From positions 1-64,000 of IMG/VR virus record IMGVR_UViG_2713896899_000007: a stretch of 64,000 nucleotides of DNA. One strand, written 5' to 3'. Position numbers and translations under genes: made by a program. Source of the DNA: a virus. Taxonomy: Duplodnaviria > Heunggongvirae > Uroviricota > Caudoviricetes. Every line of letters starts with the position of its first letter. Position 1 is the stretch's first letter. Below the pieces are notes generated by a model. It made no database searches and had not been told where the DNA came from. It saw nothing but the letters and a program-made list of their open reading frames with translations. Positions 21,608 through 54,843 of this stretch are shown here, piece by piece.

Positions 21608-21632
21608 CTATCAATTCCCTTTGATTTAGATG

Positions 21633-26039: not shown

Positions 26040-26225
26040 CTAAAACACACAGAGCGCGTCCATGCGCTCTAAAACAACTTGTTTACTGCGTATGCTAACC
26101 AACTTGTTTTCTGGGGTGTTTAATTAGGTCTGGGCATGTCTTACTAAGCCTGCTTCCGTATATATTTAATAAGTTACTTATTATTTATATATACGGAAGC
26201 AGGTCTTTAAATAAGCTCCCAGACC
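26040..26225. promoter_or_regulatory. structured region upstream of terminase: short hairpin, motif-B-like element and a long imperfect palindrome; candidate late promoter and/or cos/pac region
   Basis: AGAGCGC...GCGCTCT hairpin; CCTGCTTCCGTATATA...TATATACGGAAGCAGG palindrome at ~26150-26205. Confidence 0.35.
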
Positions 26226-26227
26226 GA

Positions 26228-26494
26228 TTACATCACCAGTAACTTCGCTTTGGCTCGACCTAAAGTGGTTAACCCAAGAGTCCGGCGGTGATAGCGATTG
26301 TCACTGCGTTGGCGCGTATGCCCTTTCTCCACCAGCCCCTTTTTTATCAGAGCGCGAATTGAGAACTGAATACTTTGCTTGGTTGTCTTGTACGGCAAAA
26401 CTTCAAGCAATTCGTCCAGATCAAGTAGATGACCTCGCTCATAACCGAGATTGAGCGTTTTGATGATGTCCTTTTGTTTATCGGTTAACGTCAT
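26228..26494 (-). CDS. small basic protein, possible winged-helix DNA-binding protein
   Basis: 88 aa; last gene of the ParB/ABC/GNAT operon. Confidence 0.35.
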   Translation of the reverse strand: MTLTDKQKDIIKTLNLGYERGHLLDLDELLEVLPYKTTKQSIQFSIRALIKKGLVEKGHTRQRSDNRYHRRTLGLTTLGRAKAKLLVM

Positions 26495-29401: not shown

Positions 29402-29483
29402 TTTATTGCTACAATCCACTAAGTAACTGCTTACTTATTATAATAGCCAAATAACATACAAAAGGCACTAAGGAAAGAGGTTT

Positions 29484-31045: not shown

Positions 31046-31324
31046 ATGAGCGAAAAGAAAACAACTTATTGCCAAGTGGCATTGTCTGATAAGGCCAATG
31101 AAAAACTTGGAAAATTTCAAATAAAACTCAAAGAGAAAAAAATCAAGATGTCTAAGGCTGAAGTTATCAATGCCATTCTGGAGACGATGACTATGGCTGA
31201 ATTTGACAAAGTCACATCTGCCGTTGGGGTTTCCGCTAAGACGCGTGAGAAAATCATGCGCATCTATGAAAACTCCAATATGACAAAAAAAGATCTAGAG
31301 GAAATACTGAGCAGGTTGCCGTAA
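31046..31324 (+). CDS. hypothetical small protein
   Basis: 92-aa ORF coupled to helicase stop. Confidence 0.4.
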   Translation: MSEKKTTYCQVALSDKANEKLGKFQIKLKEKKIKMSKAEVINAILETMTMAEFDKVTSAVGVSAKTREKIMRIYENSNMTKKDLEEILSRLP

Positions 31325-32590: not shown

Positions 32591-33205
32591 TTGGATTATC
32601 ATGATATGAAAATGAAAATTTCGTTACTCCTTGCTTGTATATGCCTCCCGGCGTTTTCCGCCAACGCATTATCAGATTTCGTCTCTGACATGCAAAAAAC
32701 GTACAGCATGTTTACCTCCGAAGACGTAGTAGAATACAAATCACGAGGTCTGAATCAGCCAGTTTGGTTCAGATTCTCAGACAACGCAGAAGAAACAATA
32801 CTTAATGGAGGAAAAGAAAGATTACGGTTGCAAATTAACGGGACCGCTGTACCAGAAAACGTTAATGTAAACTCTGACGAAGCCATGAAGCCATCTGGAA
32901 TTGTTTTAGAAGTTCAAGACGGCACACTTTACTGTGATGAAATGGCTACAACAGGTTGCCAAGTAAACATTAGGGTTGGCAATGAAGAGCCTATCGTTAC
33001 TTACGCCAAGGCTGAAGGGAATACAAGTGGAAAGGTATTGTTTATCGATGAAAATATCTCAAAACGTATCGTTCGTGACATACAGAAAACAGCTAACTCT
33101 AAATCCGTCGATAAAAAAATCTATGTTGAGGTTCCCTTCTTTGTCGTTGGTAACAAAGAATTTAAATTTGGGTTGCTGAAAACACCTCTAAGAGTATCAG
33201 AATGA
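32591..33205 (+). CDS. exported protein with N-terminal signal peptide
   Basis: MKMKISLLLACICLPAFSANA signal-like N-terminus; coupled to neighbours. Confidence 0.45.
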   Translation: MDYHDMKMKISLLLACICLPAFSANALSDFVSDMQKTYSMFTSEDVVEYKSRGLNQPVWFRFSDNAEETILNGGKERLRLQINGTAVPENVNVNSDEAMKPSGIVLEVQDGTLYCDEMATTGCQVNIRVGNEEPIVTYAKAEGNTSGKVLFIDENISKRIVRDIQKTANSKSVDKKIYVEVPFFVVGNKEFKFGLLKTPLRVSE

Positions 33206-33726
33206 GAACATTGGACATCACCTACGGCATACCGGCTGAAGTCTGGCCGCGAGACTACGAACATGCTGAAAACATACTTATGTTCTGGCGGAAGAACAAC
33301 ATTCCTGTAAGAGTCACGCTTGAAGACGGTCAGGTGTTTTGCATGTACGTTCAGGGGACAATGCCTTCCCGCAATAAGCTAGATTTATGCCCGCTTCCAT
33401 ATGATAAAGAAAATCGTATAAGACTCCCACTTGAGCGCATTAGCACAATTGAATCAGGTGTAATCGATGGCATTGCTCGCGAGTTCAAAGGTAGGCTAAC
33501 AATACATCCAGACTATGTTGACAATCAGCCATCACGCCGTGACTTTTTTGCGATATGTCGCAAGGCTTATCAAAACGACCAATCTATAAGGGTCTACATG
33601 GCAGACGGTCGTGAAATTGAAGGGGTGTCAAGAGGCGTTGATGCTTGCCAGGTCACTCTTAAGTTAGAAGACGGCAGAAAAATACTTGTTTTCTTCGATT
33701 GGGTTGAACGAATCCTTCCATTTTAA
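33202..33726 (+). CDS. hypothetical protein (two beta-rich repeat halves)
   Basis: 174-aa ORF overlapping upstream stop. Confidence 0.4.
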   Translation: MRTLDITYGIPAEVWPRDYEHAENILMFWRKNNIPVRVTLEDGQVFCMYVQGTMPSRNKLDLCPLPYDKENRIRLPLERISTIESGVIDGIAREFKGRLTIHPDYVDNQPSRRDFFAICRKAYQNDQSIRVYMADGREIEGVSRGVDACQVTLKLEDGRKILVFFDWVERILPF

Positions 33727-35399: not shown

Positions 35400-35785
35400 T
35401 TAATTTTTATTCTTGCTATGTGATCCGCGTTTAATTGTCGGCGCGGATCGGCATTTTGTTTTGTTCCGTATCCGCTCGCGTATTATGTGCGCGTGATTTT
35501 TCACATAATCACACCACTTAATCACGTATGTGATTATGCTACGAAAGAAATCTGGATGTCTCAGGCGACGAAAGTCATCATAATTTTCCCCGCTCACCTG
35601 TCCGACAACCGCTGGTTGGATTCCACCAGCTTCCCGATGTTTTTTCTACATAAAGGCGAATGCAGCCGTTTCCCGAAAAAATCCTGGCCGTTTCCCGTCG
35701 GCTCATGAATGCGTTCCTTGCCGTTTCTGAAAATTTCCCTGCGGCAGCTGGTGGCTATAGAGAAAGGGCCGTTTCTGGCCCTCTT
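35400..35785. promoter_or_regulatory. candidate origin/partition region: palindromes, DnaA-box-like 9-mers and iteron-like direct repeats (cluster 1)
   Basis: GATCCGCG...CGCGGATC palindrome; TGTGATTAT-like boxes; four or five GCCGTTTC(C/T) repeats spaced ~22-35 bp. Confidence 0.4.
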
Positions 35786-35790
35786 CTCAG

Positions 35791-36273
35791 TTACACGCCA
35801 TCAAGGATGTGGATGCGGTTGCTTGCGTATACATTCAGCATAAAGTTAGCGCAAAACAGTTTCCATGTATCAACGCCAGCGGTATACGTAATGTTTTTGC
35901 ATTTAATTGCATTGTTGGCGATCTGCGTAGCCAGTGATATGGCTTCATGGTCAGTAAAGCCGTATGACGTTTGGGTCTTCATCCAGACAGAAATCTGCGT
36001 AGCGAACTCAATCAGCTTGGACTGGCAGAATCGCCCGGAGCGCACCGGAAAGACGAACGTTCCGAATCCAGAATTTACCACATACGCTTTCTCAAATACC
36101 CGAGAGTAACGACGATTGCCAATGATGTCGCGTGCAATAATGCATTTTTCTTGTTCTGACAGTTCTACCGTCTCATTGTGACGCCAGGCACCAAGTACTC
36201 GTTTTTCAATGTCAGAGAACGTTACAGCGATATTGCCATGTGCGGGTGCGTTTACAGTAGCGATAAAATTCAT
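35791..36273 (-). CDS. hypothetical protein
   Basis: 160-aa ORF with AAGGAA RBS and motif B upstream. Confidence 0.45.
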   Translation of the reverse strand: MNFIATVNAPAHGNIAVTFSDIEKRVLGAWRHNETVELSEQEKCIIARDIIGNRRYSRVFEKAYVVNSGFGTFVFPVRSGRFCQSKLIEFATQISVWMKTQTSYGFTDHEAISLATQIANNAIKCKNITYTAGVDTWKLFCANFMLNVYASNRIHILDGV

Positions 36274-36478
36274 GATTAATTCCTTATCGTAAATAACAAA
36301 TTGTTTTCTTGTTGGCGTTAATTATCGTTGTACGAATAAGGCGTCAAAGTGGAAAGTTGCGGTAGCCGGACGGGAACAGGTGGGTTTGTCGGTTGCCTGG
36401 AGGTAAGAGGTTGGTGTTTTTAGCCTGCGGGGAACAGGATGGTCATTTAAGGCCACCAGCGTTAACTGGTGGCGTTTG

Positions 36479-37177
36479 TCATGCTGGAATCATATCTAAT
36501 TGAAAAGATTCCATTATATATGTTGGTTCATCGATGTAGTCCTTCAGCCTATTGTCAAATGACTCAAGCGGATTGTATGGCGGATGATGCCGCTCCGAGT
36601 ATTCATTTAAAAGATGCCCCATTATCAGTTCGATACCCATCTCTACTCCTGAAACTCCGAACCATACATTGTGCGTTAGTTGCTGGGCGTCTGTATCCAG
36701 TACGCGAACGCCATCAACAAGATTTATTAGATTCCTGTGGTTTTCGTGTACTGTAACCTCTCCGCTGGTTAAGTCTATTTCAGCGAGAAAATATGGTCTT
36801 TTGCTTCCGTCGGACTTTTTGAAATGACCGTCATAAGCGATAGCAAACCACGCTTTACTAAAGTCCTTGTTGGCGTAAGTGGTGCACATACAACTAGGAT
36901 AATCATCAATGTTAAACCAATCAGGAAACGGATCATCTTTAGACGAGCCAGCAAAATCATCAGCTAGTTCGTAGCTAATGTCTGGGTTGTACTTGCTGAC
37001 AAAATCATCTACATCCTCTACATCCTCAACACCTTTCCAAACTTTACATCTCTCCGACCAAAAGAATCTCGCAATATCCGAAATGACTGGGAAACGTTTT
37101 TCAATTGAATTTATCAACTCTGCATGTTCTTTAAGAGATTTACGCTTGTTGATAAGCTTCTGAAGATGCGTACTCAT
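36479..37177 (-). CDS. hypothetical acidic protein
   Basis: 232-aa ORF with motif B upstream. Confidence 0.45.
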   Translation of the reverse strand: MSTHLQKLINKRKSLKEHAELINSIEKRFPVISDIARFFWSERCKVWKGVEDVEDVDDFVSKYNPDISYELADDFAGSSKDDPFPDWFNIDDYPSCMCTTYANKDFSKAWFAIAYDGHFKKSDGSKRPYFLAEIDLTSGEVTVHENHRNLINLVDGVRVLDTDAQQLTHNVWFGVSGVEMGIELIMGHLLNEYSERHHPPYNPLESFDNRLKDYIDEPTYIMESFQLDMIPA

Positions 37178-37291
37178 TTTTAATTCCTCGTTTGTTTTTG
37201 ATGTGATAATTATCGCAGTCAGATTAAGGCAGAAAACAAATTGTTATCGGGCATAAGAAAATGGCGCGGTTTACGCGCCATTTAAAGAGGA

Positions 37292-37687
37292 TTAAGCGAA
37301 TACGCTTTCAGGGATTAAGGTGTCAGCAGGAATGCCGGAGGTAATACGCAGACCGTACTGACCAATCCAGGTGGTGCTGGTGTTCAGGCTGGAGGTGAAT
37401 ACGGAATTAACCATATTCATCATGGTTTCAAACACCTCTTCATCAACCTGGCGGAAGTAGTTCTCGATTTTCAGCAGCAGCGGGTCAGTTGCATCGAGAA
37501 TGGACTGGTATTGCGTCGCGTACTCGCCGCCGGAGGCATCACCTTTACGCACGATCGTACTGGCCTGTACTTCGGCACCAGTTTCGGTGTTGTACGTAAC
37601 AACGGTGATTTTTGCCACATTCTTACCTTCGGCGGTTTCAGAGGCATAGTAAACATCAACTGTCAGTTTTTCGCGTTTAACGGTCAT
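37292..37687 (-). CDS. hypothetical protein
   Basis: 131-aa ORF with motif A upstream. Confidence 0.45.
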   Translation of the reverse strand: MTVKREKLTVDVYYASETAEGKNVAKITVVTYNTETGAEVQASTIVRKGDASGGEYATQYQSILDATDPLLLKIENYFRQVDEEVFETMMNMVNSVFTSSLNTSTTWIGQYGLRITSGIPADTLIPESVFA

Positions 37688-37813
37688 TTCACTCTCCGTA
37701 GTGTCTTGGTTATTTTTCTATTTTATAGCCGTAAGTATGTACTTACAATACAAAAAAGCCCCGTAAGGATGGCGGGGCTGTCGTACTGTCGACTAATTAC
37801 CACTTGCACATTA

Positions 37814-38155
37814 TCAGGCTATTGCCATCACTGATGCTCTCTGAATTTCTTGTTGGGCCACGCGGTTAACTTCCATCAAAGCCAGTTCGAGCTGATGTTC
37901 CGGCCACATTCTTTGAAATGCCACCCAGCCTTTTCCACGCTGGCGACGAACATTCATTACATAACGAGTAAAGGTGTTTTTATCGAAAGACACCGCTGTT
38001 TCACGGAACAGACGAATAGAGGTTCCATTGGCAACGATGTCCAGCAAAGTTAATTGAGCAACTAGCGCAGGCTTCTCTTTTCGCTTCTGGTCTTTGTCCA
38101 GACCAAGAACCAATGATTTTTTCATCACAACTCCGTAAACAACTTGTTTTCTCAA
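37814..38155 (-). CDS. hypothetical protein (start possibly internal at MKKSLV)
   Basis: ORF with motif B at its 5' end. Confidence 0.4.
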   Translation of the reverse strand: MRKQVVYGVVMKKSLVLGLDKDQKRKEKPALVAQLTLLDIVANGTSIRLFRETAVSFDKNTFTRYVMNVRRQRGKGWVAFQRMWPEHQLELALMEVNRVAQQEIQRASVMAIA

Positions 38156-38278
38156 TGGCGTAAATAATACCAGTAAGAAAACGGCTACAAAGCATAATGA
38201 TCAGGTGCATGATCGATATGCAGGTTCCTCCCTGCGGCTATAGAGAAATTAAGCCAGCATTGCTGGCTTTGGTTGAGG

Positions 38279-38608
38279 TTACGCGAATACTTCAAGAAAC
38301 TCCTGAACGTCCCAATGCTGGACAAGGTGAAGATAGACCTTAGAAATCACGTCATTCTCGCTATCGCATGTGAAGTAGTACTTCTGGCTGCGGTTGTATG
38401 TGTCCACACAAAATTCGCTCATATCCATAAAGTCAGCATCTTCTCCCATGTCGCAAATCATCAAAGCAGGTGCGTCATCACGAGTCATCAGCTCAAGCAC
38501 CCACCGCGAATTGATCAGAGTGGAAGACCAACCTTCCAGCTCACAGAACTGGTCAAACTCTTTTTGAGTCAATTTCTTAATTTGGTTGATGTCGATATGT
38601 GCAAACAT
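38279..38608 (-). CDS. hypothetical protein
   Basis: start moved to second Met (TAAGGAT RBS); the track ATG lies inside the conserved motif B leader. Confidence 0.4.
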   Translation of the reverse strand: MFAHIDINQIKKLTQKEFDQFCELEGWSSTLINSRWVLELMTRDDAPALMICDMGEDADFMDMSEFCVDTYNRSQKYYFTCDSENDVISKVYLHLVQHWDVQEFLEVFA

Positions 38609-38959
38609 AAAGCAATCCTTAAACAACATGTTTTCTTATTGGTGTTATTATCGCAATAACGCACAGGCGAAAAAGGATTTTATTCCGGTGAATGTGGTTT
38701 TGGCAGTGAGTTTTCAGGTTCAGTACCGAGTACACTTTTTACATTATTCTGATTTAGTGGCCGAAGATGGCTGGTGGGCAGAATAATCCTCTCCCCGAAA
38801 ACCTACTGAAATCGATTGTGACCCGCTGGCTGTCTGGCACAATTACGCTGTAGCTGGGCATTCAGAGGGAATCCAGCGGTAAGTTCGCCTGCACGTGAGC
38901 GCCTCTCTTCTTACCGCACATTACAGGTGGGTAGCCGCAACTCTCCCTCACGCTATACC

Positions 38960-39105
38960 GGTACGCCACCGTTCCTGAACCGGCATCGAGCCTTTTCCCG
39001 AAATCCACACAGGCAACTCTACCGTTTCCCTGAAAATCCCCAGCCGTTCCCCGAAGGCAACCCAGCCGTTTCTGTAGCGGGATGCAGCCTTTCCCTGTAT
39101 GGACC
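38960..39105. repeat. iteron-like direct repeats (cluster 2), about six copies at ~22-bp spacing
   Basis: CCGTTTCCCTGAAAATCCCCAG / CCGTTCCCCGAAGGCAACCCAG / CCGTTTCTGTAGCGGGATGCAG and flanking variants. Confidence 0.55.
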
Positions 39106-40176
39106 GAAGGCTGACCGTAGGGGTGTTACGGGGGATAAAATCAGGAGTTGAATAAATACGAAAAAGGAGGCGACACCCCTACTTCCCTCTCCACTTATAC
39201 ATACCAGGCTTCTTCGCTATACATGTTGTGTTTTCTTCGTGTTTTATCTGTCTCAACCTCTCTATAGGCGTTAATGCTCACTCCTACCAGAACGTTCTAT
39301 ACGGCGACTATTTCTGTTGGTGGATTAGGTGTGTTGTTTTCTCTGTCGGTGTATGTGGTTTCGTTCGTTTTGCGGTGGTTCTTCTATGGGGTGTTCTCGT
39401 CGTTTTGGTGATTGTTCTTCTCCGTATATGGAGTAATGGCAGGTGGGCGATTGCTTTCGTTATTGTGTTTGAGTTGTTTGTCTGGAGTGTGTGAAAGGCT
39501 TTTGTAGTTATTCGTGTATTGGGTAATGGCGTTTCCCGTGATTGTTATGTTTCGTGTCTTTTGGGATTGAGAGAAACCTTGCGGTTACAGGCTTCGTTGG
39601 GGTTTCAGTGATTCTGGTGTTTCTTCGCTGTTTGGGGAATGGCGTGTCGTGGGTATCGCGCGTGTGAATGTTTTCGGATTGCCTGTGAAAGTTAGGTTGG
39701 TTATCCGGTAGCCTGGGAAGAAGAGGTGGGTCTTTTCGGTAGCCTGCCATAAAGAGGTTGGTTGTTTTTGGGAATGGCATGTGTGTTATTTAGTTGTTTT
39801 GTTATGCCTGAAAATAAGTTGTTTATATGGTTGTGTAACGCAACGGGAGCGATTTTGAGCGTGTGTTTTTGTTGGTAGTGTGTTGAGTCGTCTGTGGTGA
39901 AAATTGGACGCTGTGGAGCTGTCTGCTGCGTAGGATTACGGGTATAAGAAGTGATGTGTGAAAACGTCAATTTTTTAGACCAAATCGGGAGAAAGCGTTG
40001 ATGTTTCGTTGATCTGTTATTTAGTTGTTTTCTTATTGGTATAAACAACTGTAACCTATTGATATTTAAGGATGTGATTGCAGGCATGGAAGGGGAGTAG
40101 TGGCGATCAACGGATTCTTATAGAAAAGAATCAAATTGTGACCGCCATTATCAACGGTTTGAATATGTTTGCAGAT

Positions 40177-40476
40177 TTACCAGTTCCAGCACTCAAGCCC
40201 TTCAACGACCGGCGCACCACAATCAAAATGTACAGAGTCAAAGCCTACATCAAGTACTTTCTGAATGTTAGCAATCGCGCCTTCGGATATACCATATCGA
40301 CGCAAGTCGTCTTTCCAGACATCATCCTGTAACCCGGCGTGGACAATACAACCGCCATCAATTTGTGAAACCCAATCCAGCTCATTGCTTGCGATCATGA
40401 ATCGGCGAGCATCTTCCTCTGATGTATGAGATGAACTGATCAATGCCACCTGGTAGGCTTGGGTAATGTTCAACAT
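40177..40476 (-). CDS. hypothetical protein
   Basis: track start is GTG; moved to next ATG, which has a GGAG RBS; motif B upstream. Confidence 0.35.
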   Translation of the reverse strand: MLNITQAYQVALISSSHTSEEDARRFMIASNELDWVSQIDGGCIVHAGLQDDVWKDDLRRYGISEGAIANIQKVLDVGFDSVHFDCGAPVVEGLECWNW

Positions 40477-40539
40477 TTCAACCACTCCAAAACAAGTTGT
40501 TTTCTTATGTGGCTTATTATCTCTAACAACAAAAGGCAG

Positions 40540-40690
40540 AAAACAAATTGTTTTAGGTACTGTGTAAATCAGAAGGGATTGTGTCTATATGAAAATGCCC
40601 GGCGTGTTGCCGGGCATTGCGAAGAGAGGTTGTTTAATTACTTAACCTGGTGGCCAGGTTTAGCACCGGCATCCGGCTGCAGGATGGGAG
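40540..40690. repeat. direct repeat copy 1: diverged duplicate of metG 3' end (last ~12 codons plus stop), terminator hairpin and motif B; att-like
   Basis: about 85 percent identical to 41398-41550 over ~150 bp. Confidence 0.6.
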
Positions 40691-41367
40691 GTTACGTTCG
40701 CGCTATGTTGATATTCTGATTGACGCCATTTGTGCCAAATCATCTCCTTATAGGATTCATATTGCGTTCGGTACTCTGGCTTCAAGTCAGATATGCCTTT
40801 ATTCACTACCGCTCGTACGTTTACTAATAATTCGTGCTCAATGCCTTTACTCTCTAAATATTCTACAACACCAGCATCGGGGCCAATTGCCCTGCCGTTA
40901 AAGACCATTTCCAGCATAAGCTCTGTTTCAGCAAAATAGATAGGTGAGGAACCAGGTGCACACAGCTTAATAGCAGTAAGATTGTCCAACAGGTCGGCCA
41001 ATTTAATCATTCGCGTCTGCATATCCAACGTCTTTTGCAATTCGCGAACATTAATAATGAATCTCGCAAGACTATCGCCGTCGTCTGGTTTGGCAACGTT
41101 TGCCAGCGCCAGTACCATCTCAGCTACACGATTCCCGAAATACTCGCGTACCATTTCGATAGTGATATGGGTATCTTCAATAACACCATGTAATAATGCA
41201 GCAGCCTGCATTTCGACAGTGCCTCCGTGCCAAGCAACAATCTCACGCACAGAAACTGGGTGTGTAACGTAGTCTTCCCCCGTATATCTACGCTTCTTAC
41301 CTACACCACCATACACTCCAACGGCAAACATATGAGCTTTATCAACAATCGACATAATTTGCTCCAT
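40660..41367 (-). CDS. SpoT/Rel-type HD-domain hydrolase paralogue, HG variant of the HD motif, chimeric C-terminus
   Basis: HPVSVREIV...ALLHGVIEDT...MIKLADLLDN; 3' end reads into the metG-derived repeat in another frame. Confidence 0.55.
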   Translation of the reverse strand: MEQIMSIVDKAHMFAVGVYGGVGKKRRYTGEDYVTHPVSVREIVAWHGGTVEMQAAALLHGVIEDTHITIEMVREYFGNRVAEMVLALANVAKPDDGDSLARFIINVRELQKTLDMQTRMIKLADLLDNLTAIKLCAPGSSPIYFAETELMLEMVFNGRAIGPDAGVVEYLESKGIEHELLVNVRAVVNKGISDLKPEYRTQYESYKEMIWHKWRQSEYQHSANVTSHPAAGCRC

Positions 41368-41397
41368 TATTTTGTTAATACTGTTACTCTAACTGAT

Positions 41398-41550
41398 AAT
41401 AGAACGCAGAAAACAAATTGTTTTAGGGGCTGAGTAAATCAGAAGGGATTGCGTCTATATGAAAATGCCCAGCAATACGCTGGGCATTGTGAAGAATGGT
41501 TGTTTAGTTACTTAACTTGGTGGCCTGGTTTAGCACCAGCATCCGGGCTT
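41398..41550. repeat. direct repeat copy 2, overlapping the true 3' end of metG
   Basis: homologous to 40540-40690. Confidence 0.6.
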
Positions 41551-43541
41551 AACAGGAAGATATCTTTCCCGCCGGGGCCAGCAGCCATCACCATGCCTTC
41601 GGAGATACCGAAGCGCATTTTACGCGGAGCCAGGTTAGCCACCATAATTGTGTGACGACCAATCAGTGCCTGTGGGTCTGGATAAGCAGAACGGATGCCT
41701 GAGAAGACATTACGCTTTTCACCACCGAGATCCAGTGTCAGGCGCAACAGTTTGTCAGAACCTTCAACAAACTCCGCGTTTTCAATCAGCGCCACACGCA
41801 GGTCAACTTTGGCGAAGTCGTCAAAGGTGATGGTTTCCTGAATCGGGTCGTCAGCCAGTGGGCCAGTAACTGGCGCGGCAGTAGCTTTCACTTCTTCTTT
41901 GGATGCTTCCACCAGTGCTTCCACCTGTTTCATATCGATACGGTTATACAGTGCCTTGAACGGATTCACTTTATGGCCCAGCAGCGGTTGCTGGATACCA
42001 TCCCAGGTCAGTTCTGTATTCAGGAATGCTTCTGCACGTTCAGTCAGTTTCGGCAGTACCGGTTTCAGATACGTCATCAGCACGCGGAACAGGTTAATGC
42101 CCATAGAGCAAATCGCCTGCAGATCTGCATCGCGACCTTCCTGCTTCGCCACCACCCACGGAGCCTGTTCATCGACATAGCGGTTAGCCAGGTCAGCCAA
42201 TGCCATGATTTCACGGATAGCTTTACCAAATTCGCGGCTTTCCCATGCTTCGCCAATCACTTCAGCGGCATCAGTAAAGGTTTTGTACAGTTGCGGGTCA
42301 GCCAGTTCGCTTGCCAGCACGCCGTCAAAACGCTTGTTGATAAAGCCTGCATTACGGGAGGCCAGGTTAACCACTTTGTTAACAATATCGGCATTCACTC
42401 GCTGAACGAAATCCTCCAGGTTGAGATCGATATCATCAATGCGCGAAGAGAGTTTCGCAGTGTAGTAGTAACGCAGGCTGTCAGCGTCAAAATGATTCAG
42501 CCAGGTGCTGGCTTTAATAAAGGTGCCGCGAGACTTGGACATCTTCGCACCGTTCACCGTCACATAGCCATGAACAAACAGGTTGGTCGGCTTGCGGAAG
42601 TTGCTGCCTTCCAGCATGGCAGGCCAGAACAGACTGTGGAAGTAAACGATATCTTTACCGATGAAGTGGTACAGCTCGGCGGTGGAGTCTTTCTTCCAGT
42701 ATTCATCGAAGCTGGTGGTATCGCCGCGCTTGTCGCACAGATTCTTGAAGGAACCCATGTAGCCAATCGGTGCGTCCAGCCAGACGTAGAAATATTTACC
42801 CGGCGCGTTCGGAATTTCAAAACCGAAGTAAGGTGCGTCGCGGGAGATATCCCACTGTTGCAGACCAGATTCAAACCACTCCTGCATTTTGTTTGCCACC
42901 TGCTCCTGCAACGCACCGCTGCGGGTCCATGCCTGCAACATTTCGCTGAAAGAGGGCAGATCAAAGAAGAAGTGTTCAGAATCACGCATTACCGGGGTAG
43001 CACCAGAAACCACCGATTTCGGCTCGATCAGTTCAGTCGGGCTGTAGGTCGCGCCACAAACTTCACAGTTATCGCCGTATTGATCTGGCGCTTTACATTT
43101 CGGGCAGGTGCCTTTCACAAAACGATCCGGCAGGAACATGCCTTTTTCCGGGTCGTACAACTGAGAGATAGTGCGGTTTTTAATAAAACCGTTCTCTTTC
43201 AGGCGAGTATAAATAAGCTCAGACAGCTGGCGGTTCTCTTCGCTGTGCGTCGAGTGATAGTTGTCATAGCTGATGTTAAAGCCTGCGAAATCAGTCTGGT
43301 GTTCCTGACTCATTTCGCCAATCATCTGCTCCGGTGTGATACCAAGTTGCTGTGCTTTCAGCATGATCGGCGTACCGTGGGCATCGTCGGCACAGATGAA
43401 ATTAACCTCGTGGCCGCGCATTCGCTGGTAACGAACCCAGACATCAGCCTGGATGTGCTCCAGCATATGGCCGAGGTGGATTGAGCCGTTAGCGTACGGC
43501 AGCGCGCACGTCACCAGAATTTTCTTCGCGACTTGGGTCAT
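41508..43541 (-). CDS. metG: methionyl-tRNA synthetase (host gene)
   Basis: 677-aa product with HIGH-type motif ([11 protein letters not shown]) and KMSKS; near-identical to enterobacterial MetG from MTQVAKK; the longer track ORF is an upstream in-frame extension. Confidence 0.95.
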
Positions 43542-44836: not shown

Positions 44837-45226
44837 CTACATCACAGGACAATCATCAAACTCGCCACTTCTTGCGTCGTTGATAATGTGAGTGATCACA
44901 CCAAACACGGCATTGCTGCCCGTGCATCCATCGTCATCCTTTGGCAATGCTTCCTTCTTACCAGTTCTTAAATCCTCCAGATGCTGACGTGGATACTTCC
45001 GGTATCTTTTTACGCGATATTCCCCATCCAGAGCGCATACAAGCAGAGAACCATCAACCGGGGTAAGTGAGGAATCGACCACCAGCAATGCGCCCTGCAA
45101 TATTCCCTCACGATGATGGCTGTCAGCCGCTCTCATGAAGTAGGTCGCTGAAGGATGTCTAATTATCTGCTGATCAAGAGAAATACGGCTCTCAGCATAA
45201 TCCGCCGCAGGAGAAGGGAAGCCCAT
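44837..45226 (-). CDS. UmuD'-like S24 peptidase-fold protein (HumD-like, naturally lacks the UmuD N-terminal arm)
   Basis: begins MGFPSPAADY, i.e. at the residue after the UmuD Cys24-Gly25 cleavage site; Ser and Lys of the S24 dyad present. Confidence 0.7.
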   Translation of the reverse strand: MGFPSPAADYAESRISLDQQIIRHPSATYFMRAADSHHREGILQGALLVVDSSLTPVDGSLLVCALDGEYRVKRYRKYPRQHLEDLRTGKKEALPKDDDGCTGSNAVFGVITHIINDARSGEFDDCPVM

Positions 45227-45398
45227 AGCGTTTTGCCCTCAATACTGTTCATTTATACAGTATACATGAAAGAAGCTCACTCAGTGCAACTGATCGGTAC
45301 ATAGCACCAGACAAAGGAACATTATTTTCTCGAACAAGAAAAGGTAGAAAACAAATTGTTTAAGGCCACAGCTAGTGGCCTTAATGGAGAAGGGATGC

Positions 45399-49188: not shown

Positions 49189-49742
49189 TACGATGCCTCT
49201 AACTTGTCTAACTCTTTCAGCCCTTCACGTACCGCGTTCACAATGCGTTCCAGATACTGGTATTTCGGGTTTGGTACCGTTGGCCAGTCGGCATACCACG
49301 GATCATCACCAAAGAGATTCAGTAGTTTGTTACCGACGCCGAAACAGCAGCAGCTTTCTTTTACGTCATCGGCGTTTTCCGCCTCGTCCCACATTTCGCG
49401 AGCCAGTACGGCGTCTATTTCTCTCTCTCTTCGTAACTTTATGATTTCTGACTTCACGAAAAGCAGATTTGCATCGTTGTCATCGTCGACCGTGCTTCGC
49501 AGTTGAGGGTCGAAATAGCCGATTAGATACTCGTTGCTGACCCGCTTAATGAACGTCTGCACATCATCACCGCCCATAGCAAACCAAGCCGCAGTCCACG
49601 CTTTTCCGTAGCAGGTGATGGTGATTCTTCCCTTACCAGGTTCGTAGTTTTCAATCATCACTCGAACCGGATCGAGGCGTTCCAGATCCGTCAGCACAAA
49701 GGAAAGAACATCTATTTTTTCGATCTTCATGCAGCCTCCCAC
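49188..49742 (-). CDS. hypothetical protein
   Basis: 184-aa ORF. Confidence 0.4.
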   Translation of the reverse strand: MGGCMKIEKIDVLSFVLTDLERLDPVRVMIENYEPGKGRITITCYGKAWTAAWFAMGGDDVQTFIKRVSNEYLIGYFDPQLRSTVDDDNDANLLFVKSEIIKLRREREIDAVLAREMWDEAENADDVKESCCCFGVGNKLLNLFGDDPWYADWPTVPNPKYQYLERIVNAVREGLKELDKLEAS

Positions 49743-50368
49743 GCGCTCCAGATCAGCGATTTGTGTTTTTCATAACGTTTGATGTGTACCGGTTTCAGAA
49801 GCGCAATACCTTCAGTGACTTTCGCCATTGCGCTTAATAACAACGGGTGTTCTATACCTATCCTCTCCATGTACTCGACAACATCAGCGTTGGCACCAAT
49901 CTCCTTCCCGTTAAAAAGTACGTCCAGCATCAGCTCTTTCTCTGCAAGGTAGATAGCTGAAAACTCAGGATCGCGACTCACGATAGAAGAGGTATTGTCG
50001 AGCAGGTCAGCCAGCTTGATCATGCGCGTCTGCATGTCGAGATTTTGCTCCAGCTCCCGGACATTGATGATGAAACGCTGTATTCGATTGCCGTCTTCTG
50101 GCCTTGCGATGTTGGTCAGAGCCTGAACCATTTCAGCTACGCGCTCACCGAAGTGATCACGAACCATCTCTATGGTTACATTGGTGTCTTCGACCACATC
50201 ATGCAGAAGCGCCGCGATTTGCATCTCCACGGTTCCGTCATGCAATGCAACAATCTCTCGGACAGCAACCGGGTGGTTGATGTAGTCTTCGCCGGTATAT
50301 TTTCTTTTCTGACCAACGCCACCATGAGCGCCAGCGGCGAACATATGTGCTTCGGAAATACTAGACAT
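49727..50368 (-). CDS. SpoT/Rel-type HD-domain hydrolase (small alarmone hydrolase-like), intact HD motif
   Basis: HPVAVREIV...ALLHDVVEDT...MIKLADLLDN. Confidence 0.65.
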   Translation of the reverse strand: MSSISEAHMFAAGAHGGVGQKRKYTGEDYINHPVAVREIVALHDGTVEMQIAALLHDVVEDTNVTIEMVRDHFGERVAEMVQALTNIARPEDGNRIQRFIINVRELEQNLDMQTRMIKLADLLDNTSSIVSRDPEFSAIYLAEKELMLDVLFNGKEIGANADVVEYMERIGIEHPLLLSAMAKVTEGIALLKPVHIKRYEKHKSLIWSAWEAA

Positions 50369-50487
50369 TCTTAACTCCGTTGTTTTCTAGTTGTGGTTAT
50401 TTTCACAAATAAGAAAAGGTAGAAAACAATTTATTTAAGGCCACAACTTATGGCCTTTATTTATTCATGCAGAAGAATTTGTAGCGT

Positions 50488-51633: not shown

Positions 51634-53319
51634 TCATTTAACGCGTTTGAAAACGTATACGCTGACTGTGATCCCTGTGTCTTCAAACTCGTTGGTAAAC
51701 GACTTCCCTCTGGCATAAACGTAATTATCCATCGTCATCCAGTCCAGTATTGGCGCAGTGCCCGGCAATACTGCTACAAGACGCCCGCCGACTTTCAGAT
51801 GCCCCAGCGCAGCCATCGTGTGCTCTCTATGACGACCAAGCGAGTACGGCGGGTTCATAACGATTTTGTCGAACTGATAACCTGCGTTGTCCTCAGACCA
51901 CTTTATGAAGTCGCAGCAAATCGTGTTCGTATACCCTTTTCCACGCAGGATATCAGCGAAGAGAGGTGCGATTTCTATGCAGGTAACATCTTCCAGATCG
52001 GCGTTAATATAGGCCAGAAGATCCCCACGTCCGGCTTGAGGCTCCAGCAGCTTCTCACCAGGCTTCAATTCAGTGGCTCTGGCAACGTACTCAGCAATCA
52101 AGCGTGGGGTAGGGTAGAACTGGTGTGATTTTGTATCCGGTATTAAACCGGTAGCCACAATCGTATTTAGCGTATGGCCGATGTCATACGGGAACTGCCA
52201 GTGCTTTTTCTCCTGCACGCCGCCAATGAAGCTCAGTGTGCGCTCAAGCTCTTCCACCTGCGACTTCTGGAGAGCTGAATCAGAGAAGTACCATACGCCT
52301 TTGTCTTTGCTCAATCGCCCGTCACGAAGCGCAGTGCGAACCGGCACGGAGATCGTCTTCTGGATTAACCCGAACTGCTTTGGTGCCCGTGTTTTTGGCG
52401 CAGTGCGGCATGGCGCGGGGATTGCAGCAGGCATACTGTAAGCCAGCACCTCATTCAACTTCCAGGCCACGTCAGGATGTATTTCAAAGTGAACGTTGCC
52501 GTTCTTGAACATCTTCACGCGCATCAGATTTCCATCGACGTTCATCCAGTCACCGGTCTGGCAGTCGTTTGCCCGATACGCAGCTGATAGCACCTCAGCA
52601 GTGCGGTTGATGGTAATAAATTCTTTGTGCGCGAAGAAATGAAGCAAGACACGCAGATCGTCGATGTAGTCCTCTTTGCGATAGTTCACGCTAACGCTGT
52701 CCCGCCAGAAATCAGAAATGCAGTCAGCGATTATCAGCCGCTCGCTGAAACCGTTTGTCTTATTCGTCTTGTGCGCAGGACTCAGCGCCTTAAACAAGCC
52801 ATACACGCGCTCAGAGAGATATTTGTGCCTGTCATTCAGCAAATTAAGCATCGTGGGTATGACCGTTTCTGCTTTGAACTCCGGTACACCAACGAACTCT
52901 TTAACCTTCATCTGGTAGCCGGTTCTGTCAGTTTTGATGACTTCCTGTTTGCCCTCTATAAACTGCTCGCGCCACTCATCTCGACGGGAAGCTGGCATGA
53001 TCAGCAAAACGTTAGTCATGTCCGTGACCTTCCTCCAGTACTCGGCCCAAATATTCTGTTTCACCCATTCCAGATCGACTTTATCCAACCAACCTCGATT
53101 TAAACGCGAGCGATCTTCATCTGGTCGATGGTTTAGTCGCAGCAGGCGATTAATCATGTTGTGGCGTTCGTCGCCATAAACGAAGTCGTGTACCTGATAC
53201 ATGAAGGCGATCTCTTTCTCGCACTCGGCCACGATTTCGTGGATGACATTCATTTCCTGACGATAGTCGATAGCCGTGTTTGAGCTGGCATCGTCGATGA
53301 TGGAAAGGGCTGTATTCAT
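51634..53319 (-). CDS. N6-adenine-type methyltransferase with ~400-aa N-terminal domain of unknown function
   Basis: C-terminal motif I LLEPQAGRGDL and motif IV NPPY about 45 aa apart. Confidence 0.6.
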   Translation of the reverse strand: MNTALSIIDDASSNTAIDYRQEMNVIHEIVAECEKEIAFMYQVHDFVYGDERHNMINRLLRLNHRPDEDRSRLNRGWLDKVDLEWVKQNIWAEYWRKVTDMTNVLLIMPASRRDEWREQFIEGKQEVIKTDRTGYQMKVKEFVGVPEFKAETVIPTMLNLLNDRHKYLSERVYGLFKALSPAHKTNKTNGFSERLIIADCISDFWRDSVSVNYRKEDYIDDLRVLLHFFAHKEFITINRTAEVLSAAYRANDCQTGDWMNVDGNLMRVKMFKNGNVHFEIHPDVAWKLNEVLAYSMPAAIPAPCRTAPKTRAPKQFGLIQKTISVPVRTALRDGRLSKDKGVWYFSDSALQKSQVEELERTLSFIGGVQEKKHWQFPYDIGHTLNTIVATGLIPDTKSHQFYPTPRLIAEYVARATELKPGEKLLEPQAGRGDLLAYINADLEDVTCIEIAPLFADILRGKGYTNTICCDFIKWSEDNAGYQFDKIVMNPPYSLGRHREHTMAALGHLKVGGRLVAVLPGTAPILDWMTMDNYVYARGKSFTNEFEDTGITVSVYVFKRVK

Positions 53320-53460
53320 AATTACACCATTAAATAATTTGTTTTCTTATTGGTGTAATTATCGCAAACTTGAAAAGGCATAAAAGCTGCATTCATAGGC
53401 GTTACAGCAGATTTAAGGCGTAAAAATGGGGGCTTTCGCCCCCTGTCGACTGGTGCAGTA

Positions 53461-54027
53461 TTAGAGTGCGTATTGCGTTTTGTGCGGCTGCTTATTCAAG
53501 TCATGGCGATGCGTGAGCTCCCGCATCATGTCTTCAAGGCGACTCTTTGTGTCGTCGAGCTGGTCGGCCATTGCACCTAAAAGCTGGCGAACGGCCATCG
53601 GATTGTCGCTGTTTAGTGATGGCATTTTATAACCTGCTTTAGAAGACATAAGGTTAATTGCAGACATCAACATCGTTAGAGAGGATTTAAGCCCGGCAAT
53701 TTCACGATCTTTGCTGGCAATAATCGTCTCACTTTTGTTACCGTCATGAGTTCCTTGAGTCTCGCTCACCATATCCAAAGTCGCTTGCAACTTATCGGCT
53801 CTCTCTTTTTCAGCAAGGTAATGAACGCCGAAATGATGTGCTAAAGCTACAACCTGAGTTGGTTCTTCAAAGGTGGAATTAAAATTAAGTACTGTAAACA
53901 GTCTCTCAAATATGGAAACGTCTTCTGTTCCCCGAACAATGCCTAACATTTTGACAAGTTCATTAGCATCCATTTCTTCGAATAGGGCGTTTTGTTCATC
54001 AGCTATTGCTTTGCATTTCTCGCACAT
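53461..54027 (-). CDS. hypothetical protein
   Basis: 188-aa ORF with motif B upstream. Confidence 0.4.
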   Translation of the reverse strand: MCEKCKAIADEQNALFEEMDANELVKMLGIVRGTEDVSIFERLFTVLNFNSTFEEPTQVVALAHHFGVHYLAEKERADKLQATLDMVSETQGTHDGNKSETIIASKDREIAGLKSSLTMLMSAINLMSSKAGYKMPSLNSDNPMAVRQLLGAMADQLDDTKSRLEDMMRELTHRHDLNKQPHKTQYAL

Positions 54028-54324
54028 GTGTTTTCCTTAATGCTTAAACAAGTTGTTTTCTTATTGGCTTTATTGTGATGTGGCATATAAGGGGAGCAAG
54101 CTAAACGTAAAGGTGCAAACTCTCTATTTTGGTCAACGAAACACAAGGGCCATTTGGCCCTTGTCATTAACACTTTGCTTTACGGACTAGCGGATAGGCG
54201 AAGTAGATCGCCAAACCAATGAGGACGCCATCAGAAATGACAGACATCATCTTTCCCGTAAAATCCACCAACACCGCCATCACCAGAAGAGCAATGACGG
54301 TCACAAGCCGGAATCTCTCAAGCA

Positions 54325-54750
54325 TTAGAGATAAGCATCCAGTGACAACTGAAGCGCCTGGGCGATCTTTTTCAGTGCCTGCTCTTCTTGTTCACCAATG
54401 CCGTCCTGGTCGGCAATATCAAGGCACAGACACAGAACATCGACCGCCTCTGGAGTGCCCGCAATATCAGCCAGCTCACGCATAGCCTGTGCATTAGCGG
54501 AACGAGGGGACGCTTCGTAACGAGCACGGATATTGGCGCTCATTTGGGCAATCTCACCAGCAAACGGAGAAAACGCAGGCAGAGCTGCAATTGTCTTCTC
54601 AAGAATGGCAATTTCTTTTGCGTCACATGTGCCGTCGGCATAGGAGATCATGTACGCGCCCCACACGGTGGCCTCAACCGCATCACGGTTCTCCATTTTT
54701 TTGACTTCGATAACTGCTTTACGAGTTTTCTTTTTGAAGAAACCTAACAT
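54325..54750 (-). CDS. TerB-like domain protein (tentative)
   Basis: two ADG/ADQDG...E motifs as in TerB/DjlA-N family. Confidence 0.4.
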   Translation of the reverse strand: MLGFFKKKTRKAVIEVKKMENRDAVEATVWGAYMISYADGTCDAKEIAILEKTIAALPAFSPFAGEIAQMSANIRARYEASPRSANAQAMRELADIAGTPEAVDVLCLCLDIADQDGIGEQEEQALKKIAQALQLSLDAYL

Positions 54751-54843
54751 GTGTTTTCCTTTTGTTATTTGTCAAAACAAGTTGTTTTCTAGTTAAATAA
54801 ATTGCTTACGCAAAGACGGTCAATGCATATGCACTAACAACCG

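Follow-up and report, generated by a model that had tools for sequence, protein, structure and literature searches.

The 64,000-nucleotide stretch of viral DNA analyzed here (IMG/VR record IMGVR_UViG_2713896899_000007, positions 1 to 64,000; hereafter the window) contains many copies of a short cassette, in which a -10-like hexamer lies close to the palindrome AAAACAA-N-TTGTTTT. One copy is located at 38621-38661. What this repeated element is, whether a single factor acts on all of its copies, and which gene could encode such a factor are the questions raised by this locus.

The window is approximately 96% identical to the E. coli phage-plasmid Cyrano (pLF82). Its region 36000-41500 shares 96.7% identity across 71% of its length with Cyrano (OV696614.1, 108 kb) and also matches three further E. 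coli records, each of approximately 108 kb. The element is of the SSU5/Cyrano type of phage-plasmids, Cyrano being a relative of Salmonella phage SSU5. In E. coli LF82, Cyrano is the resident SSU5-like phage-plasmid; it is maintained at approximately 5.5 copies, and ciprofloxacin induces it 39-fold (PMC9928086). Phage-plasmids of the SSU5 type are frequently found in E. coli, Salmonella (pHCM2-type), Klebsiella, and Enterobacter, with resistance genes on some of them (PMC9600943, PMC12217456). We found nothing on their lysis-lysogeny circuitry in the searchable literature, and 60% of the genome is annotated as hypothetical. In the window, virion genes occupy 1-26 kb and early and DNA-metabolism genes occupy 26-64 kb, both transcribed from the minus strand, and a low-GC gene cluster at 29.5-35.2 kb is located on the plus strand.

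Occurrence and Sequence of the Palindrome

With up to two mismatches, AAAACAA-N-TTGTTTT has 16 matches in the window versus 0.68 ± 0.85 expected, a number reached in none of 100 shuffles. The earlier note had placed at least 13 copies of the motif in the early regions, and all 13 places listed do hold the palindrome at two or fewer mismatches. A half-site matrix scored 14 sites at 19-29, compared with a top score of 15.6 among 30 shuffles; the matrix was derived from the same sites, so this test is partly circular. A spacing test is independent of the matrix: exact AAACAA-Nk-TTGTTT occurs eight times at k = 1, and no other k from 0 to 45 gives two occurrences. Two weaker sites, 33685 and 39818, have matrix scores of 17.7 and 14.0, close to the shuffle range.

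All 14 strong sites are intergenic, lie between 26 and 55 kb, and are found upstream of minus-strand genes, 18-72 nt (once 129 nt) before the start codon. The matrix scan found no strong site in the 26 kb of structural genes. The invariant core is the 13-bp AAACAA-N-TTGTTT, with 93-100% conservation at positions -6 to -1 and +1 to +6, while positions ±7 and ±8 are merely biased. The extended form spans 13-17 bp, (G)AAAACAA-N-TTGTTT(TC), and the 17-mer operator is GAAAACAAGTTGTTTTC. The CCAATAAG block shows partial conservation among the cassettes. Half-sites keep the same sequence, and a mismatch in one half is found without compensation in the other.

Outside the cassette of approximately 45-60 bp, pairwise flank identity is 0.25 upstream and 0.28 downstream, versus 0.47 inside. 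A duplicated upstream segment was found only for 40547/41417 (86%). The pair 41417/50430 shows similarity downstream, because the genes concerned are paralogues. The flanks are otherwise unrelated, and the motif therefore appears to have been kept by selection, in agreement with the earlier view of a functional motif and not of recent duplications.

Architecture of the Cassettes

The minus strand at 38661-38606, which contains the cassette at 38621-38661, reads GCGATAATAACACCAATAAGAAAACATGTTGTTTAAGGATTGCTTTATG. Its operator GAAAACATGTTGTTTAA (38619-38635, minus strand) is centered at 38627, and the -10 hexamer GATAAT (38647-38652, minus strand), preceded by TGC as in an extended -10 element, begins 25 bp upstream of this center. 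The gene served by this cassette is located at 38279-38608 (minus strand). Its likely start is ATG 38608, which follows AAGGA by 7 nt, and ATG 38629 falls within the palindrome. The suspicion that starts called inside a cassette are wrong is thus plausible, and TTG 38155 and GTG 40485 look mis-called as well.

This copy is one of eight downstream-type sites (centers 26103, 36300, 38143, 38627, 40496, 53338, 54052, and 54781), in which the palindrome center lies 25 or 26 bp past the first base of the -10 hexamer. With the hexamer set at -12 to -7, the center lies near +14. The start codon follows 18-31 nt past the center, and the right half-site abuts the Shine-Dalgarno sequence, the sites ending 5-15 nt short of it. 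All operators given below are on the minus strand. The operator at the small-terminase promoter (26095-26111, center 26103) has a -10-like CCTAAT at 26123-26128, and 25 bp away is a second TerS operator (26070-26086, center 26078), which precedes the TerS ATG 26031 by 47 nt. The operator centered at 36300 (36292-36308; -10 GATAAT, 36321-36326) serves a gene for a 160-aa protein at 35791-36273. For the operator centered at 38143 (38135-38151), the -10 is TGGTATTAT with its hexamer at 38164-38169, and the gene behind it likely starts at ATG 38125; for that centered at 40496 (40488-40504; -10 GATAAT, 40516-40521), the likely start is ATG 40476. The operator centered at 53338 (53330-53346; -10 TGCGATAAT, hexamer 53358-53363) serves a DUF4942 gene (51634-53319), and that centered at 54052 (54044-54060; -10-like CACAAT, 54072-54077) serves the gene at 53461-54027. 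The operator centered at 54781 (54773-54789), with a weak second copy centered at 54801, serves a TciA-like gene (54325-54750); no -10-like hexamer was found at the expected offset of this site.

Five sites are of an upstream type (37240, 40547, 41417, 45355, and 50430). Here a terminator-like hairpin is followed by the palindrome and then by a -10 hexamer that begins 26 bp past the center, so that the center lies near -38. The terminator-like hairpins reported earlier ahead of several cassettes were recovered before these five sites. The operator centered at 37240 (37232-37248), which follows a terminator hairpin, has the -10 TGCGATAAT (hexamer 37209-37214) and serves the gene at 36479-37177. 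The operator centered at 41417 (41409-41425; -10-like TAGAGT, 41386-41391) serves a gene for a 235-aa protein (40660-41367). The operator centered at 45355 (45347-45363; -10 GAAAAT, 45324-45329) lies upstream of the LexA-box promoter of a UmuD'-like gene. The operator centered at 50430 (50422-50438; -10 TGTGAAAAT, hexamer 50399-50404) serves the gene at 49727-50368, and its promoter also carries a half-site, GAAAACAA, in the downstream position (50380-50387). The operator centered at 40547 (40539-40555) is the upstream partner of 40496 at the same promoter: the two flank one -10 with their centers 51 bp apart, and 51-bp pairs around one -10 also occur twice in SSU5.

The order first described, GATAAT and then the palindrome, fits the eight downstream-type sites, but at the five upstream-type sites the palindrome precedes the -10. 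Likewise, a palindrome at the transcription start or in the leader is what the downstream-type sites show, at or near the likely start, whereas in a third of the copies it precedes the -10.

At 13 of the 14 sites a -10 hexamer is present at the fixed offset (GATAAT, TATTAT, GAAAAT, CACAAT, CCTAAT, or TAGAGT), as expected of a sigma-70 -10 hexamer (A at position 2 and T at position 6). TG at -15/-14 is found in 5 of the 11 distinct promoters of the window (37240, 38143, 38627, 50430, and 53338) and is also common among the SSU5 copies. In both types, the -10 is preceded at 8 bp by a conserved GCCTTTTC box. None of the seven cassettes within 35500-42000 was picked up by a consensus scan for a -35 hexamer spaced 16-18 bp from the -10, and the idea of canonical sigma-70 promoters was abandoned. 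Because no -35 is found at 16-18 bp, we read the cassettes as putative -10-only or extended -10 promoters. The claim that one promoter type precedes many operons is borne out, one palindromic operator at or near the start site being common to them. The fixed 25/26-bp spacing could partly stem from common descent of the cassettes.

Conservation Among SSU5-like Elements

Cyrano and Salmonella phage SSU5 contain 19 and 21 palindrome sites, respectively, in the same geometry. The K. pneumoniae STEFF_14 plasmid also has 21 sites, K. pneumoniae phage pJN2-26 has 11 sites in 40 kb, and K. oxytoca pRHBSTW-00452_5 has approximately 17 sites with the consensus CCGTAAACAACTTGTTTACTGCC, among which the upstream type is dominant. 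The orthologous promoters of TerS, parA, helicase, DUF4942, and RNR-beta bear the palindrome among Cyrano, SSU5, and the three Klebsiella lineages; the operator is found at the TerS promoter in all five lineages and at the parA promoter in four. Targets beyond the window are parA, a DnaB-like helicase operon, a cobT-like gene, CYRAN_58, and RNR-beta. Across genera, no part of each intergenic region is better conserved than the 13-bp core. The cassettes do precede many early operons, as the earlier note had said, but the pair 26078/26103 precedes the small-terminase gene, which is a late gene. Nor is the regulon purely early: the terminase operon belongs to it, as does the parA partition operon in complete relatives.

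The DUF4942 promoter shows how the operator can change its place. The -10 and the GCCTTTTC box are kept in all lineages. In the window, SSU5, and pJN2-26, the operator follows the -10; it is decayed in Cyrano, precedes the -10 in K. oxytoca, and is found on both sides in STEFF_14. Such operator turnover around a fixed -10 fits a DNA site adjoining the -10 and not a leader RNA element.

The AAACAA-N-TTGTTT palindrome is absent from the SSU5-like plasmids of Pectobacterium (Drgb1) and Providencia. Drgb1 instead has 11 intergenic copies of AGGTATTTAAATACCT-like dyads (e.g., at record positions 21626, 71214, and 79207). The absence of the palindrome from these relatives and the presence of other repeats there point to an element-encoded, lineage-specific factor. 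Within the family, the motif is a marker of one branch, and other repeats take its place in the Pectobacterium/Providencia branch, which makes it a useful case of regulator/operator turnover. A split operator, AAACAA-N19-TTGTTT, was seen three times by eye in the outgroup, with no enrichment. An exact-pattern scan of IMG/VR gave chance matches and SSU5-like contigs and no new host family. A recurrent leader, AAACAAATTAAGG, was also observed ahead of start codons in Drgb1.

Expression of the Linked Genes in a Lysogen

Gene-level RNA-seq counts of Cyrano genes in the LF82 lysogen were taken from the S1 Table of PMC9928086 (median 9.8). Genes directly behind palindromes are mostly at background, with 5-13 counts versus the median of 9.8 (PMC9928086). 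The values are 7.1 for TerS, 7.8 for CYRAN_47, 5.7 for CYRAN_58, 12.9 for CYRAN_70, 7.0 for CYRAN_85, 7.1 for CYRAN_87, 6.3 for CYRAN_93, 7.5 for CYRAN_101, 12.8 for CYRAN_105, 12.2 for CYRAN_106, 5.7 for CYRAN_108, and 6.7 for CYRAN_110 (PMC9928086). Exceptions, despite an operator, are parA to CYRAN_30 (50-89 counts), the helicase gene (21), and CYRAN_111 (25) (PMC9928086). Silence in the lysogen fits repression, as well as promoters that lack their activator.

Candidate Regulators

Gene presence was compared over five complete genomes. Six Cyrano genes (CYRAN_37, 59, 61, 62, 111, and 114) track the palindrome and are absent from both palindrome-less plasmids. This co-occurrence points weakly to a regulator, because it reflects a single phylogenetic split and counts as one event; adding the fifth complete genome (STEFF_14) did not thin the list. 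CYRAN_62 is Cra-like. CYRAN_37, which lies outside the window and inside a palindrome-controlled operon, encodes a 71-aa winged-helix-like protein with an invariant W(K/R)PKTRA(K/R)LER and is the sole evident putative DNA binder among the six. Its gene is silent in the lysogen, with 6.4 normalised counts (PMC9928086). Structure searches found no DNA-binding fold for two of the six genes, and PHROGs, Pfam, and PDB sequence searches with 10 candidates returned unknown function throughout. No conserved DNA-binding gene was found that both tracks the palindrome and is clearly expressed in the lysogen (CYRAN_37, 6.4 counts; a gene for an 88-aa winged-helix protein, 7.8).

Several further genes were considered and set aside. 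CYRAN_45, annotated as a putative repressor, was rejected: it belongs to an accessory integrase module missing from SSU5, which retains the palindrome. The 88-aa winged-helix-like protein, encoded beside the TerS operators (26228-26494, minus strand), is an unlikely binder: its gene stays at background in the lysogen, and the palindrome-less Pectobacterium- and Providencia-type relatives have the same putative recognition helix, TTKQSMQFSIRALIKKG. The ParG-like ribbon-helix-helix protein CYRAN_29, encoded after parA, is likewise unlikely, its beta-strand KSRTMSLE also being kept in palindrome-less relatives. The S24 LexA-like gene encodes a UmuD'-like protein, not a repressor, and has its own LexA box. 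The 160-aa protein encoded behind 36300 is a homologue of CYRAN_111; it co-occurs with the palindrome and is moderately expressed, but its AF2 model (pLDDT 83) has no PDB fold match and no helix-turn-helix.

A 92-aa ribbon-helix-helix-like protein is encoded just past a UvsW-like helicase gene (31046-31324, plus strand). It has a positional orthologue in every lineage, with identity ranging from 100% to undetectable, and its gene is 12-fold above background in the lysogen (PMC9928086). This protein is probably the immunity repressor. As binder of the palindrome it is unlikely, being hypervariable where the palindrome is invariant, and its predicted DNA-facing residues fail to separate palindrome-bearing from palindrome-less lineages.

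The FljA-like gene (33202-33726, plus strand; Pfam Flag1_repress, 5e-81) encodes a protein predicted to consist of two tandem Hfq/Sm-like domains (pLDDT 82.8). The top PDB matches of the model are Hfq chains (probability 1.00, rmsd 1.1-1.5 Å over approximately 57 aa), and the predicted fold would suit RNA rather than DNA. The gene (CYRAN_114 in Cyrano) is retained in Klebsiella SSU5-like plasmids. Klebsiella is classically without flagella or flagellin. The FljA-like gene is a candidate regulator only if control is exerted at the RNA level.

A Dispersed Operator as the Favored Explanation

The palindrome is very probably the DNA site of one regulator that acts jointly on the partition and packaging operons and on most of the early genes. 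In six downstream-type cassettes, the leader folded no better than shuffled sequences (z -1.4 to +0.8), with the palindrome hairpin not consistently formed, an Rfam search of the window gave no match, and half-site mismatches go uncompensated. In addition, a third of the sites, and most of those in K. oxytoca, precede the -10 by a constant distance. We therefore read the palindrome as a site in DNA and not in RNA. The reading that we favor, and to which we give somewhat better than even chances, is that the cassettes carry dispersed copies of a DNA operator at which a single regulator acts, encoded by the element, specific to this clade, and most likely a repressor. What the analysis shows is where the sites lie, how they are arranged and conserved, and that the genes behind them are silent in the lysogen of a near-identical element; from this we infer that the cassettes are promoters, that a protein binds and represses them, and that the element encodes it. 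In the earlier proposal of a single repressor, one regulator thus stands as the best reading, and repression is the part that we deduce.

Under the dispersed-operator model, each cassette would be a -35-less promoter fused to a 13-17 bp palindromic operator in one or both of two fixed positions. The upstream position, near -38, would cover the -35 region, and the downstream position, near +14, would overlie the transcript start beside the ribosome-binding site. One sequence-specific protein of twofold symmetry may bind every copy; its gene would reside on the phage-plasmid, and the protein would be confined to the Enterobacteriaceae branch within the SSU5 group. Once bound, it would keep the promoters shut off, with RNA polymerase occluded or its escape blocked, and sites 51 bp apart would probably cooperate. 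Approximately 20 transcription units per genome would be co-regulated in this way, comprising early and DNA-metabolism operons, the parA partition operon, and the terminase operon. By sequence alone, the palindrome would then define a regulon of about 20 promoters that links early replication, plasmid partition, and DNA packaging. It would also give a handle on the master regulator, map promoters and operon boundaries, and correct several start codons.

The same sites could instead be bound by an activator or a dual-function regulator, the -35-less promoters being silent in the lysogen for want of it; after induction, it would switch promoters on from -38 and possibly shut others off from +14. 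Promoters without a -35 are a hallmark of activator dependence, and activators classically bind at -38. No -35 occurs in any cassette, and the upstream copies, 26 bp before the -10, overlap the -35 region and form the dominant arrangement in K. oxytoca. The winged-helix protein CYRAN_37, which co-occurs with the palindrome and whose gene lies in a palindrome-controlled operon, is unexpressed in the lysogen, as such an activator might be, and the true immunity repressor could be the hypervariable ribbon-helix-helix protein, which is expressed in the lysogen and would act at other sites. However, 8 of the 14 sites in the window lie near +14, which is not a normal activator position, TGn is present in 5 of 11 promoters and is able to replace a -35, and occlusion accounts better than activation for an operator that may lie on either side of one -10. 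We consider activation rather unlikely, though it is the chief alternative. A host transcription factor of Enterobacteriaceae would account for a palindrome that stays invariant although the elements' own small regulators diverge strongly, and for its lack in elements of Pectobacteriaceae and Morganellaceae hosts. To our knowledge, however, no E. coli factor has this consensus, and approximately 20 sites per element, all at phage promoters and with operator turnover, are typical of an element-encoded regulator; we regard a host factor as highly improbable.

At the RNA level, the FljA-like tandem-Hfq protein could bind AAGAAAACAA-N-UUGUUU in the leader beside the Shine-Dalgarno sequence, so that translation is blocked and the mRNA destabilised. 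In favor of this, FljA acts on translation of fliC mRNA (PMC2652032), the FljA-like gene is found in every palindrome-bearing lineage, including Klebsiella, and is absent from the two palindrome-less ones, and it is transcribed in lysogens (log2 approximately 7-8 outside stationary phase). Its product is predicted to have the two Hfq-like domains, and the downstream-type sites end just before the Shine-Dalgarno sequence, as described above. Were the protein to act as FljA does on fliC, every target should carry the site in its 5' leader by the Shine-Dalgarno sequence, but eight sites of the window do and five do not; these five, like the majority in K. oxytoca, precede the -10 and follow terminators, a place where an RNA site would have no reason to be. 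Exact dyad symmetry is not expected of a single-stranded site, no stable or covarying hairpin was found, the E. coli K-12 fliC leader contains CCAATACGTAATCAACGACTTGCAAT and no AAACAA-N-TTGTTT, and the co-occurrence is common to five other genes and amounts to one event. Control of mRNA by this protein is therefore very unlikely in our judgment, and we give equally little credence to the broader proposal that it silences the lytic programme through the A-rich/U-rich motif by ribosome-binding sites or through its DNA counterpart. If true, what is known as a family of flagellar phase-variation repressors would in fact be a lysogeny-maintenance factor of prophages with the Sm fold. The palindrome might also be incidental, with no regulator involved, in a promoter/translation-initiation module that was inherited and spread by duplication. 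The pair 40547/41417 is a clear segmental duplicate, and paralogous HD-domain genes carry similar cassettes, but the other flanks are at random identity, the 13-bp core is the best-conserved part of each intergenic region across genera, and the palindrome switches side while the -10 stays. Such an origin without any binding factor seems barely credible.

Comparison With Known Systems

Compared with P1 C1 and KorA/KorB, the regulon is most likely a new case of the dispersed-operator type. The P1 C1 repressor has 22 operators described as widely dispersed (PMC8546580). In both cases, a plasmid prophage carries about 20 scattered operators before lytic functions (19-21 per genome here, 14 in the window), and most linked genes here are silent in the lysogen, as would be expected of a C1-type regulon. 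The P1 operator is an asymmetric 17-bp sequence, ATTGCTCTAATAAATTT (PMC8546580), whereas the present one is a perfect AAACAA-N-TTGTTT dyad; in addition, no C1 homologue was recognised here, and the terminase and parA promoters are included.

KorA and KorB of IncP plasmids (RK2/RP4) similarly act at short palindromic operators at many promoters of one replicon, including partition and maintenance promoters, and the parA promoter here carries the operator in four lineages. The KorA and KorB operators OA and OB differ in sequence, as far as is known, from the palindrome described here. The targets here, in contrast, are mainly phage early genes, and the ParB-like genes are silent in the lysogen with nothing tying them to the palindrome. 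Cooperative repression at recurring operators is described for KorA (PMC2665229).

Multiple operators are also described for the repressor of mycobacteriophages L5/L1 (PMC1934351). Like their stoperators, the palindromes are many 13-bp-class sites in short intergenic spaces genome-wide, and those past start points could block elongation. L5/L1 stoperators are asymmetric and orientation-dependent, whereas the present sites are symmetric and keep a fixed distance of 25/26 bp to the -10. The activator-dependent T4 MotA middle, Mu Mor/C, and P1 Lpa late promoters have a sigma-70 -10 without a -35 plus a phage-specific box at -20 to -40. The cassettes share a -10 without a -35 and a conserved box with these promoters, but most copies here are downstream of the -10, and the box is a dyad on either side of it.

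Other Features of the Window

In a search of a plasmid collection with the TerL region, the terminase region had matches of 80-90% identity in 62 plasmid records from Yersinia, indicating that pMT1-type plasmids share the packaging module. A palindrome of approximately 55-60 bp, CCTGCTTCTGTATATATAAATAATAAGTAACTTATTAAATATATACGGAAGCAGG, lies at approximately 26125-26190, between the 88-aa winged-helix gene and the TerS promoter, and its outer arms are kept even in Pectobacterium- and Providencia-type relatives. A related dyad, TAAGTAAC-TGC-TTACTTA, is found at 29418-29436 in the divergent helicase/ParB-like promoter region.

The UmuD'-like S24 gene (44837-45226, minus strand) stands alone, with no UmuC alongside, and has a perfect LexA box, TACTGTATAAATGAACAGTA, at 45243-45262. 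Its Cyrano orthologue shows the strongest induction in macrophages (log2 7.2 to 12.2). Two paralogous HD-domain ((p)ppGpp-hydrolase-like) genes, 40660-41367 and 49727-50368 (both minus strand), each follow an upstream-type cassette; the former stands where Cyrano has the coiled-coil gene CYRAN_102.

Iteron-like direct repeats (TAGCCTG..GG.A..AGGT.GGT) with a spacing of 28-31 bp are located at 36363-36443 and 39706-39767. They are placed with an ORF-free, strand-biased region of approximately 1.4 kb (C/A-rich on the minus strand), the non-coding stretch at approximately 38700-40100. Judging from this arrangement, the repeats may represent a second origin, an incompatibility locus, or a partition locus.
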